From a virus: 10,821 bases of DNA. Location: UHGV virus genome UHGV-1747927. One strand, given 5' to 3'. Shown piece by piece: positions 6,686 through 8,513 of this stretch; the stretch's first letter is position 1; each line of letters begins with the position of its first letter. The notes beneath the pieces were generated by a model. That model did not search any database. It saw only the letters and a list, made by a program, of their open reading frames with translations, and had not been told where the DNA came from. The position numbers and the translations under genes are program-made.

Positions 6686-6753
6686 TATCACCGCTAGAGG
6701 TAAAATAGTCAACACGCACGGTGTTAGAAGTTTATCCCTTGCGGTGATAGATT
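6686..6753. promoter_or_regulatory. OR1-OR2-OR3 operators with divergent promoters pR (toward cro) and pRM (toward cI)
   Basis: OR1 is TATCACCGCTAGAGGTA (6686-6702), OR2 CAACACGCACGGTGTTA (6710-6726), OR3 TATCCCTTGCGGTGATA (6733-6749). pR -35 is TTGACT (6712..6707) and -10 GATAAT (6689..6684) on the minus strand. pRM -10 is TAGATT (6748-6753) with the cI ATG 7 nt downstream (leaderless, as in lambda). Confidence 0.85.
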
Positions 6754-6759
6754 TAATGC

Positions 6760-7473
6760 ATGAGCGCAAAAAAGAAACCGTTAACACAAGAGCAGCTTGA
6801 GGACGCACGTCGCCTTAAAGCTATTTATGAAAAAAAGAAAAATGAGCTTGGCTTATCCCAGGAATCTGTCGCAGACAAGATGGGGATGGGGCAGTCAGGT
6901 GTTGGTGCTTTATTTAATGGCATCAATGCATTAAATGCTTATAACGCCGCATTGCTTGCAAAAATTCTCAACGTTAGCGTTGAAGAATTTAGCCCTTCAA
7001 TCGCCAGAGAAATCTACGAGATGTATGAAGCGGTTAGTATGCAGCCGTCACTTAGAAGTGAGTATGAGTACCCTGTTTTTTCTCATGTTCAAGCCGGGAT
7101 GTTCTCGCCTGAGCTTAGAACCTTTACCAAAGGCGATGCGGAGAAATGGGTAAGCACAACCAAAAAAGCCAGTGATTCTGCATTCTGGCTTGAGGTTGAA
7201 GGTAATTCCATGACCGCACCAACAGGCTACAAGCCAAGCTTTCCTGACGGAATGTTAATTCTGGTTGACCCTGAGCAGGCTGTTGAGCCAGGTGATTTCT
7301 GCATAGCCAGACTTGGAGGTGATGAGTTTACCTTCAAGAAACTAATCAGGGATAGCGGTCAGGTGTTTCTACAACCACTAAACCCGCAATATCCAATGAT
7401 CCCATGCAATGAGAGTTGTTCCGTTGTGGGGAAAGTTATCGCCAGCCAGTGGCCAGAAGAGACGTTTGGGTGA
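6760..7473 (+). CDS. cI: cI repressor (237 aa), lambda-type immunity
   Basis: Near-identical to lambda cI as recalled, including the HTH region [21 protein letters not shown] and the C-terminal LexA-like autocleavage domain. Confidence 0.95.
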
Positions 7474-7504
7474 TTGTTTTATTTTTCACGTAATAGGATG
7501 ATTT

Positions 7505-7846
7505 ATGACACAATTTCAACTTGCATTAATCGCTAGAGAAGTTGATGGAGAAGTCATCCATCTTCGCACCAAAGACGGATACATCAATGCCACCGCGATG
7601 TGCAAGTCTGCGGGGAAGCTACTTGCTGACTATACACGACTAAAAACAACACAAGATTTTTTTGATGAATTATCACGCGATATGGGGATTCCCATATCGG
7701 AGTTAATTCAATCATTTAAAGGCGGAAGAGCAGAGAATCAAGGGACTTGGGTTCATCCAGACATCGCAATTAATTTAGCTCAGTGGCTATCTCCAAAATT
7801 TGCAGTGCAAGTATCGAGATGGGTGCGTGAGTGGATGTCAGGTTAA
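7505..7846 (+). CDS. KilA-N domain protein (113 aa) in the rexAB position
   Basis: KilA-N/Bro-N-like motifs (INATAMCKSAGK, GTWVHPDIAINLAQWLSPKFAVQVSRWV). AGGA lies 6 nt upstream of the ATG. It starts 31 nt after the cI stop on the same strand. Confidence 0.7.
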   Translation: MTQFQLALIAREVDGEVIHLRTKDGYINATAMCKSAGKLLADYTRLKTTQDFFDELSRDMGIPISELIQSFKGGRAENQGTWVHPDIAINLAQWLSPKFAVQVSRWVREWMSG

Positions 7847-7885
7847 AGAGCGCCTGCCGAACTCCCTATCCACCTTAAGCGGTAT

Positions 7886-8264
7886 ATGACAAACCGAGGC
7901 AGAGTTCCTCATACGCACTTTTCTATGCTTAATGAACTGACGTTTAACTTGGTTGCGCCACTTGAACAGGCCGGATATACGCTGCCAGAAAAAATGGTCC
8001 CTGATATTTCAGAGGGTAGGGTTTTCTCGCAATGGCTCCGTGACAACCGGGGGGTTGAGCCGAAGACATTCCCAACATATAACCATGAGTACCCAGATGG
8101 CCGGACATTCCCGGTACGTCTATACCCAAACGAATATTGCAGATTTCAAACAATACTTCAACGAAGTGTGGCTGCCTCAGTACGCTCCTAAATATTTTGC
8201 TGAACGAGACCAAAGGGCATTGACGTTGATTGAGAAAATCATGCTACCTGACCTTGATTCCTAA
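7886..8264 (+). pseudogene. Downstream ORF with apparent +1 frameshift (frames 7886-8191 and 7953-8264), in frame with KilA-N across a single TAA
   Basis: The 7886 frame looks protein-like up to about 8130 (...RTFPVRLYPNEY). The +1 frame looks protein-like only from about 8130 (ADFKQYFNEVWLPQYAPKYFAERDQRALTLIEKIMLPDLDS) and ends 8 nt before a terminator. The 7886 frame is the KilA-N frame and only one stop (7844-7846) separates them. Confidence 0.4.
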
Positions 8265-8272
8265 ATGTTATT

Positions 8273-8299
8273 CCCGGCCACAGAGCCGGGTTTTCTTTG
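8273..8299 (+). terminator. Intrinsic terminator ending the cI-KilA-N transcription unit
   Basis: CCCGGC, loop CACAGA, GCCGGG, followed by TTTTCTTTG. It lies directly after the stop at 8262-8264. Confidence 0.6.
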
Positions 8300-8335
8300 C
8301 CTCACGATCCCCCTCACCCAAGAACACATAACCAA

Positions 8336-8365
8336 TTGTATCTATTTGAAAATAAATAGATACAA
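8336..8365. repeat. Perfect 12-bp-arm palindrome with 6-nt spacer (TTGTATCTATTT GAAAAT AAATAGATACAA)
   Basis: Read directly from the sequence. It lies in the AT-rich intergenic region between the terminator and OL3. Confidence 0.5.
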
Positions 8366-8450
8366 CTCACTAAACATAGCAGTTCAGATCTCTCACCTAC
8401 CAAACAATGCACCCCTGCAAAAAATAAATTCATATAAAAAACATACAGAT

Positions 8451-8513
8451 AACCATCTGCGGTGATGAATTATCTCTAGCGGTGTTGACATAAATACCAC
8501 TGGCGGTGATACT
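8451..8513 (+). promoter_or_regulatory. pL promoter with OL3-OL2-OL1 operators
   Basis: OL3 is AACCATCTGCGGTGATG (8451-8467), OL2 TATCTCTAGCGGTGTTG (8471-8487), OL1 TACCACTGGCGGTGATA (8495-8511). -35 TTGACA (8485-8490), 17-bp spacer, -10 GATACT (8508-8513). Nearly identical to lambda pL as recalled. Confidence 0.85.

Follow-up and report, generated by a model that had tools for sequence, protein, structure and literature searches.

Operator alleles in a lambda-type CI/Cro immunity region of the virus genome UHGV-1747927

Wild phages of the lambda immunity group reportedly carry CI, Cro and their sites in a form almost identical to that of lambda, as Degnan et al. are said to have described in 2007. 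Here we compare with these phages the cro-OR-cI-OL region of a 10,821-nucleotide stretch of the virus genome UHGV-1747927 (one strand, 5' to 3'; the whole stretch is referred to hereafter as the window). The closest deposited phage over this region is PhiR5_2, with 97.6% identity across 6400-8620, followed by wild phages of the lambda immunity group with immunity regions on deposit as EF120455-EF120461. The window differs from lambda by one base in each of three operators. The explanation that we consider best, and very probably correct, is that the window holds a working lambda-type module with natural, near-neutral operator alleles and unchanged immunity, in which the CTAG form of the operators is probably the older one.

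The operators and repressor compared with those of lambda

To judge by its sequence, which contains every element that marks a lambda-immunity CI/Cro switch (CI, a divergent cro, and three OR and three OL operators of 17 bp each), the region is a lambda immunity module of the working type (cro, PR/OR1-3/PRM, cI, PL/OL1-3) from a wild lambdoid prophage or phage. The lambdoid early region lies in reverse orientation relative to the lambda map, in the order cro (6459-6659, minus strand), OR1-OR3 (6686-6749), cI (6760-7473, plus strand) and OL3-OL1 (8451-8511). Alignment to the lambda reference (NC_001416) showed that gene order, the number and spacing of the operators, and the promoters are the same. 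The operators and promoter hexamers align without gaps and the OR operators keep the lambda spacing, while the distance from OR to OL is 1755 bp as compared with 2353 bp in lambda. OR2, OR3 and OL1 are identical to those of lambda, cI is 98% identical and Cro 97%. The differences are one base each in OR1, OL2 and OL3, together with changes in the PRM −35, the PRM leader, the PR +1 and the PL discriminator; in addition, rexAB is swapped for a disrupted BstA-like gene, and N/nutL is of another allele. The two genes and six operators are as follows.

cro, 6459-6659, minus strand: 66 amino acids; Pfam PF09048 Cro, E=3.9e-33; 64/66 residues identical to lambda Cro by BLASTP
cI repressor gene, 6760-7473, plus strand: 237 amino acids; 98% identical to lambda cI; Pfam HTH_3 and Peptidase_S24
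OR1, 6686-6702: TATCACCGCTAGAGGTA, lambda TATCACCGCCAGAGGTA; C to T at 6695, position 8 of the non-consensus half, which makes a CTAG
OR2, 6710-6726: identical to lambda by alignment
OR3, 6733-6749: identical to lambda by alignment
OL3, 8451-8467: AACCATCTGCGGTGATG; A to G at 8467 (lambda ends in GATA), position 1 of the consensus half
OL2, 8471-8487: TATCTCTAGCGGTGTTG, lambda TATCTCTGGCGGTGTTG; G to A at 8478, position 8 of the non-consensus-like half, which makes a CTAG
OL1, 8495-8511: identical to lambda in the window

The three operator differences had been noted in an earlier reading of the window, made without database searches (the original prediction), which proposed direct alignment of OR, OL and cI to lambda as a check. 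When this alignment was run, the flagged positions were not identical to the reference. The lambda sequences given in it were correct, and the differences in OR1 (CGCCAGAGG in lambda, CGCTAGAGG in the window), OL2 (CTCTGGCGG in lambda, CTCTAGCGG in the window) and OL3 were each confirmed. It had also been proposed that OR1 and OL2 carry the same transition at the equivalent position, and this is so: written with the non-consensus half first, both are G to A changes at position 8 (TACCTCTGG and TATCTCTGG).

Among unique haplotypes, common polymorphism within the six operators is confined to positions 6695, 8478, 8502 and 8467. At the first three the same CTGG/CTAG exchange recurs, each time at position 8 of a non-consensus half; 8467 is a terminal base. 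OL1 shows the CTAG form, at 8502, in 10 of 33 unique OL haplotypes; the window keeps the lambda form. The OL1 of mEp332 (EF120456, positions 1492-1508) reads TACCACTAGCGGTGATA; a G to A change at position 8 of its non-consensus half gives it a CTAG. Inspection by eye showed that the operator CTAGs form no XbaI, NheI, SpeI or AvrII site.

A few residue differences had likewise been suspected in cI, and alignment found exactly four: T3A, K71N, R129K and S157Y, counting Met1. In mature numbering these are T2A, in the DNA-binding arm, K70N, and the C-terminal changes R128K and S156Y. None falls within the recognition helix, QSGVGALFN, which is unchanged, and the window cI matches the lambda repressor structure PDB 3bdn with E=4e-154. 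Cro differs from lambda Cro by M12I and V55I.

Distribution and polarity of the alleles

Among the named phages examined, OR1-CTAG is present in HK97, HK106, HK244, HK542, CL707, mEp234, mEp332 and PhiR5_2, and HK544 alone matches lambda. HK97, HK106, mEp234, CL707, HK244, HK542 and PhiR5_2 all share OR1-CTAG and cI Ala3 with the window, and all differ from it in having OL2 and OL3 of the lambda type; in PhiR5_2 the gene that follows cI is moreover intact. The likeness to mEp332 (EF120456; Degnan et al. 2007 data set) is closer, with OR1 and OL2 identical and cI T3A, K71N, R129K and S157Y all present. Unlike the window, mEp332 has CTAG also in OL1, an OL3 without the terminal G and with a change at a different base, a lambda-like PRM −35, the extra cI changes G125S, D139G and A174T, and another gene between cI and OL. 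Public records have contained the two flagged operator alleles, and the four cI substitutions as well, since 2000-2007 (HK97; EF120456 and related). Within the lambda-immunity group the operator and cI variants are ordinary alleles of natural origin, and they are already known in substance because records of characterised phages contain them. What the window adds is a haplotype in which OL3 ends in G, the PRM −35 looks weaker and the PR +1 base is changed.

The abundance of the alleles was assessed by typing OR, OL and cI in 80 IMG/VR loci found via cI and in 120 IMG/VR loci found by an OR1 pattern, as well as in the named phages. The pattern admitted either OR1 allele, and the 120-locus set that it gave is arbitrary rather than ranked by similarity. 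In that set, OR1 had CTAG in 81 and CCAG in 33 of 114 typed loci, while OL2 had CTAG in 20 and CTGG in 58 of 78. The bases at OR1 and OL2 were combined as T,G in 38 loci, C,G in 20, T,A in 16 and C,A in 4; because all four combinations occur, the OR1 and OL2 alleles are not a coordinated or co-adapted pair. Covariation of OR1, OL2 and the cI arm residue was also considered and was rejected, since every combination occurs. Ala3/Asn71 was the state of cI in 82 of 103 loci, and the lambda state, Thr3/Lys71, was found in 12. OL3-G was seen in this sample solely on an OL2-A background.

Searches of complete Escherichia coli genomes with allele-specific 45-mers gave 178 for OR1-CTAG and 177 for OR1-CCAG, and the CTAG 45-mer was specific in that no lambda record matched it. 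The corresponding 38-mers for OL2 gave at least 18 for CTAG and 218 for CTGG. The OL2-CTAG count is a lower bound because neighbouring variants break the 28-base seed; the same 38-mer found no match in deposited phages, although mEp332 has the allele, nearby variants having broken the seed. A scan of one genome per species showed that most matches to the C allele of OR1 in unrelated bacteria are lambda cI857 ind1 (cI A67T, E118K). Its carriers, among loci L205-L230, include assemblies of Enterococcus, Shewanella, Desulfovibrio, Helicobacter, Mycobacterium and Kitasatospora, and some are low-coverage contigs of ∼48.5 kb. The cI857 ind1 DNA in these unrelated assemblies is laboratory contamination or a spike-in, and because of it database counts of the lambda alleles are inflated.

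The exact OR/cI/OL haplotype of the window, including OL3-G and PRM TAGAAG, is present in at least seven independent IMG/VR contigs. Because the full haplotype recurs in this way, the differences from lambda are not sequencing noise. An origin by sequencing or assembly error, for which we found nothing in favour, is refuted by the recurrence of the same bases across numerous independent sequences from phages, prophages and metagenomes, and its probability is close to nil. The counts indicate that reference lambda is atypical of its own immunity group, since OR1 and cI residues 3 and 71 differ from the lambda form in most wild relatives. For those who use the lambda operators as a reference, OR1-CTAG is at least equally common in nature.

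Distant relatives bear on the age of the alleles. Loci whose cI is ∼55-79% identical (L087, L124, L133 and L151 from IMG/VR, and loci in Pantoea latae, L206, Mixta sp., L204, and Enterobacter adelaidei, L226) have OR1-CTAG in every case, within diverged flanks; their OR1 and OR1-OR2 spacer are identical to those of the window. Where the sequence reaches OL, in L087, L151 and L206, OL2 is TATCTCTAGCGGTGTTG, the OL2 of the window, in all three. Lambda's CCAG and CTGG look derived because these relatives carry CTAG at OR1 and OL2, which suggests that CTAG is probably the older state at both operators. The original prediction had described the changes as creating CTAG; this stands in so far as CTAG is present where lambda has CCAG or CTGG, but the polarity that it implies is probably backwards. 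The operator specificity of lambda may reach far outside the immunity group as classically defined. The site equivalent to OL3 in the distant lineage has CTAG in L151 and CTGG in L087.

A mutational hot spot is a second, tentative explanation of the variable operator sites, compatible with near-neutrality. In E. coli, Vsr converts T:G mismatches in CTAG to CCAG, and it would repeatedly erode CTAG operators, whatever their function, to CCAG/CTGG. CTAG scarcity has been linked to very-short-patch (VSP) repair (PMC4687349; PMC2715241), and CTAG is fourfold depleted in the window, with six copies as compared with 25 ± 4.6 expected from dinucleotide-preserving shuffles. The three variable operator sites share the context CTCT/ACT-G/A-GCGGTG, and the outgroup polarity at OR1 and OL2, from CTAG to CCAG, fits the direction of Vsr. 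Across the cro-cI and OL blocks, the inner C of lambda's CCAG is polymorphic by transition at 6/9 sites as compared with 108/545 other C/G sites (p=0.003), and at 6/6 as compared with 84/270 when unconstrained sites are taken (p=0.001). However, this test was framed post hoc and its counts are small. The enrichment is gone over the whole window (6/51 versus 272/2935, p=0.47), and it is marginal when the unconstrained sites of the window are taken (odds ratio 2-4, p=0.03-0.08). The polarity of coding sites is mixed, with C ancestral at 7170 and, at 7443, C in the nearest outgroup and T in lambda, and none of the operator sites is a complete CCWGG site for Dcm/Vsr. A Vsr-driven CCAG/CTAG bias is therefore possible, though weakly supported.

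A stronger form of this idea would make the textbook lambda operators eroded derivatives of an ancestral CTAG OR1, OL2 and perhaps OL1, produced by Vsr in E. coli, so that host repair bias and not selection by CI and Cro would shape the circulating alleles; separately, the linked PR +1, PRM −35, OL3 and cI changes could shift the set-point measurably. We consider this combination rather doubtful. If true, the repair bias would be a case in which DNA repair by the host shapes the regulatory sequences of a phage.

Two of the six CTAGs of the window are the operator sites in OR1 and OL2. CCAG/CTAG polymorphisms also lie inside cI, at 7005, 7170, 7236, 7308 and 7443. At 7442-7445 (lambda cI codon 228, a synonymous difference) the roles are reversed, lambda and mEp332 having GCTAGT where the window and the nearest outgroup have GCCAGC.

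Predicted effects on CI binding and immunity

The effect of the OR1 change on CI binding has been published. In the Sarai & Takeda series, reproduced in PMC2194778 (Table 3), replacement of OR1 G10-C32 by A-T, which is this exact change, costs CI +0.4 kcal/mol. According to the same table, any substitution at this base pair costs 0.2-0.5 kcal/mol, as compared with 2.5-2.7 kcal/mol for its mirror position in the consensus half, and replacement of the terminal A19-T23 by G-C, the equivalent of OL3-G, costs +0.4 kcal/mol. In structure 1LMB the N-terminal arm is resolved on the consensus half alone (PMC2194778); position 8 of the non-consensus half is, we infer, unread by the ordered N-terminal arm of CI. 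By the literature value, which was obtained on another sequence, CI binding at OR1 would be roughly twofold weaker, and a similarly small loss would be expected at OL2 and at the terminal base of OL3. Because the OR1 site lies at about −18 in the PR spacer and the OL2 site upstream of the PL −35, as judged from the geometry of the sequence, the promoter hexamers are untouched. The suggestion that the operator changes tune repressor affinity thus keeps some force, a small loss at OR1 being plausible, but in a weak sense when set against the cost at the mirror position.

Each of the four common operator polymorphisms corresponds to a transition for which the OR1 series gives a cost of at most 0.4 kcal/mol. 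We attribute this pattern to purifying selection everywhere except at the least sensitive positions. It amounts to a natural experiment, in which the common operator variation of the sampled wild relatives is confined to the positions least sensitive for CI in vitro, in agreement with the classical biochemistry.

Lambda vir and other operator-constitutive mutations strongly reduce CI binding and abolish immunity. Virulence-type mutations escaping CI repression were considered here because the changes in the window are single-base changes inside OR1 and OL2, where operator-constitutive mutations are known to map. However, the position affected is the least sensitive of the operator, and the published OR1 value for this exact change, +0.4 kcal/mol, is not a strong reduction in CI affinity. 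Furthermore, unlike vir mutations, the alleles are found in stable prophages: they sit in the integrated prophages of hundreds of genomes and in temperate phages kept as lysogens. These observations effectively refute a vir-like origin.

Adaptive retuning is an unlikely alternative. It supposes that the operator, CI, PRM −35 and OL3 changes were selected together, and that they shift the set-point of the switch, in lysogen stability and induction threshold, or confer heteroimmunity in part. Consistent with this, 6677, 6695, 6729-30, 6757/6759, 8467, 8478 and the four cI residues form a linked block in the window lineage that recurs as a haplotype; one of the CI changes is in the DNA-binding arm, and the PRM −35 drops from 4/6 to 3/6 matches to TTGACA. 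Against it, OR1 and OL2 alleles are freely combined, both between the two operators and with the alleles of cI, most wild loci have Ala3/Asn71 (82/103), and the OR1 change has the small published cost given above. Moreover, mEp332, with all four cI changes and three CTAG operators, remains in the immunity group of lambda.

This last point also bears on the question of immunity. Both mEp234 and mEp332 are stated to share lambda's immunity group (PMC3442831), the first with OR1-CTAG, the second with CTAG in OR1, OL2 and OL1 and all four cI changes. The proposal that the differences might alter immunity specificity is unsupported for the OR1, OL2 and cI features because mEp332 shares them and belongs to that group. 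By the example of these two relatives, the immunity of the window should remain of the lambda type.

We therefore return to the operator differences as near-neutral alleles circulating in the lambda-immunity group. On this reading, CI would still bind cooperatively at OR1-OR2 and OL1-OL2, cooperativity buffering the weaker binding, and would still repress PR and PL and activate PRM. Variation at the same position in three operators would be explained by weak constraint, few operator positions being less constrained than this one, and a CCAG/CTAG mutational bias of the host may add to this. Several points weigh on the other side. OL3-G, the PRM −35 TAGAAG, and the PRM leader and PR +1 changes are present in no characterised phage examined. 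The value of 0.4 kcal/mol applies to OR1 with lambda CI (Thr2, Lys70), not to OL2 or to the CI of the window, and the evidence on binding and immunity comes from lambda and relatives rather than from the exact haplotype of the window. Full neutrality at position 8 predicts transversions as well as transitions, and none is common. As to polarity, that of OR1 was read from loci found by a pattern which fixes the other OR1 bases, and that of OL2 from one outgroup lineage. The significance of the alleles beyond bookkeeping is little.

Promoters and neighbouring genes

The original prediction overlooked the changes in the PRM −35, PRM leader, PR +1, PL discriminator and Cro, and the replacement of rexAB. 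The features concerned, and a terminator, are as follows.

PR promoter, 6677-6712, minus strand: −35 TTGACT (6707-6712), −10 GATAAT (6684-6689); placed by alignment to lambda, with +1 from the mEp234 annotation
PRM promoter, 6725-6760, plus strand: −35 TAGAAG, −10 TAGATT (6748-6753), leaderless start at the cI ATG; positions from the mEp234 and mEp332 annotations
PL promoter, 8485-8520, plus strand: −35 TTGACA (8485-8490), −10 GATACT (8508-8513), +1 near 8520; positions from the mEp234 annotation
Timm-like intrinsic terminator, 8273-8298, plus strand: CCCGGC...GCCGGG, then a run of Ts; corresponds by alignment to the Timm annotated in mEp332 and mEp234
BstA-family (KilA-N) gene, disrupted, replacing rexAB, 7505-8264, plus strand: compared with the intact 253-amino-acid gene of PhiR5_2

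At 6677, the equivalent of the lambda PR +1, the cro strand has C where lambda has A; the corresponding plus-strand G was found in 13/81 unique haplotypes, and the PR start site may shift as a result of this change. The lost match of the PRM −35 to TTGACA (4/6 to 3/6) lies at 6729-6730, where TAGAAG replaces the TAGATA of lambda, and TAGAAG is limited to the lineage of the window (6-7/81 unique haplotypes). Between the PRM −10 and the cI ATG, 6757 and 6759 differ, giving TAATGC in the window and TAACGT in lambda. The PL discriminator is AAACAC as compared with GAGCAC in lambda (8514 and 8516); here the form in the window is the wild majority, with A in 29/33 and 26/33 haplotypes at the two positions, and lambda has the minority allele.

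As compared with PhiR5_2, the BstA-family pseudogene has two lesions: at 7844-7846 GAA has become the stop codon TAA, and near 8137 two base pairs are deleted. The intact PhiR5_2 copy was recognized by PADLOC as BstA (E=2.5e-20), a phage-defence homologue with a KilA-N N-terminal domain. The disrupted allele of the window is present in 12 IMG/VR loci and the intact allele in 11, some of these loci being one contig fetched twice.

Downstream of PL, the antiterminator at 8623-9108 belongs to an N allele other than that of lambda (PF25694 N_peptide, E=2.8e-16). Divergence from lambda begins just past the PL start, and the sequence at 8520-8620 matches mEp234 and PhiR5_2, which illustrates the mosaic boundary where the immunity region ends.

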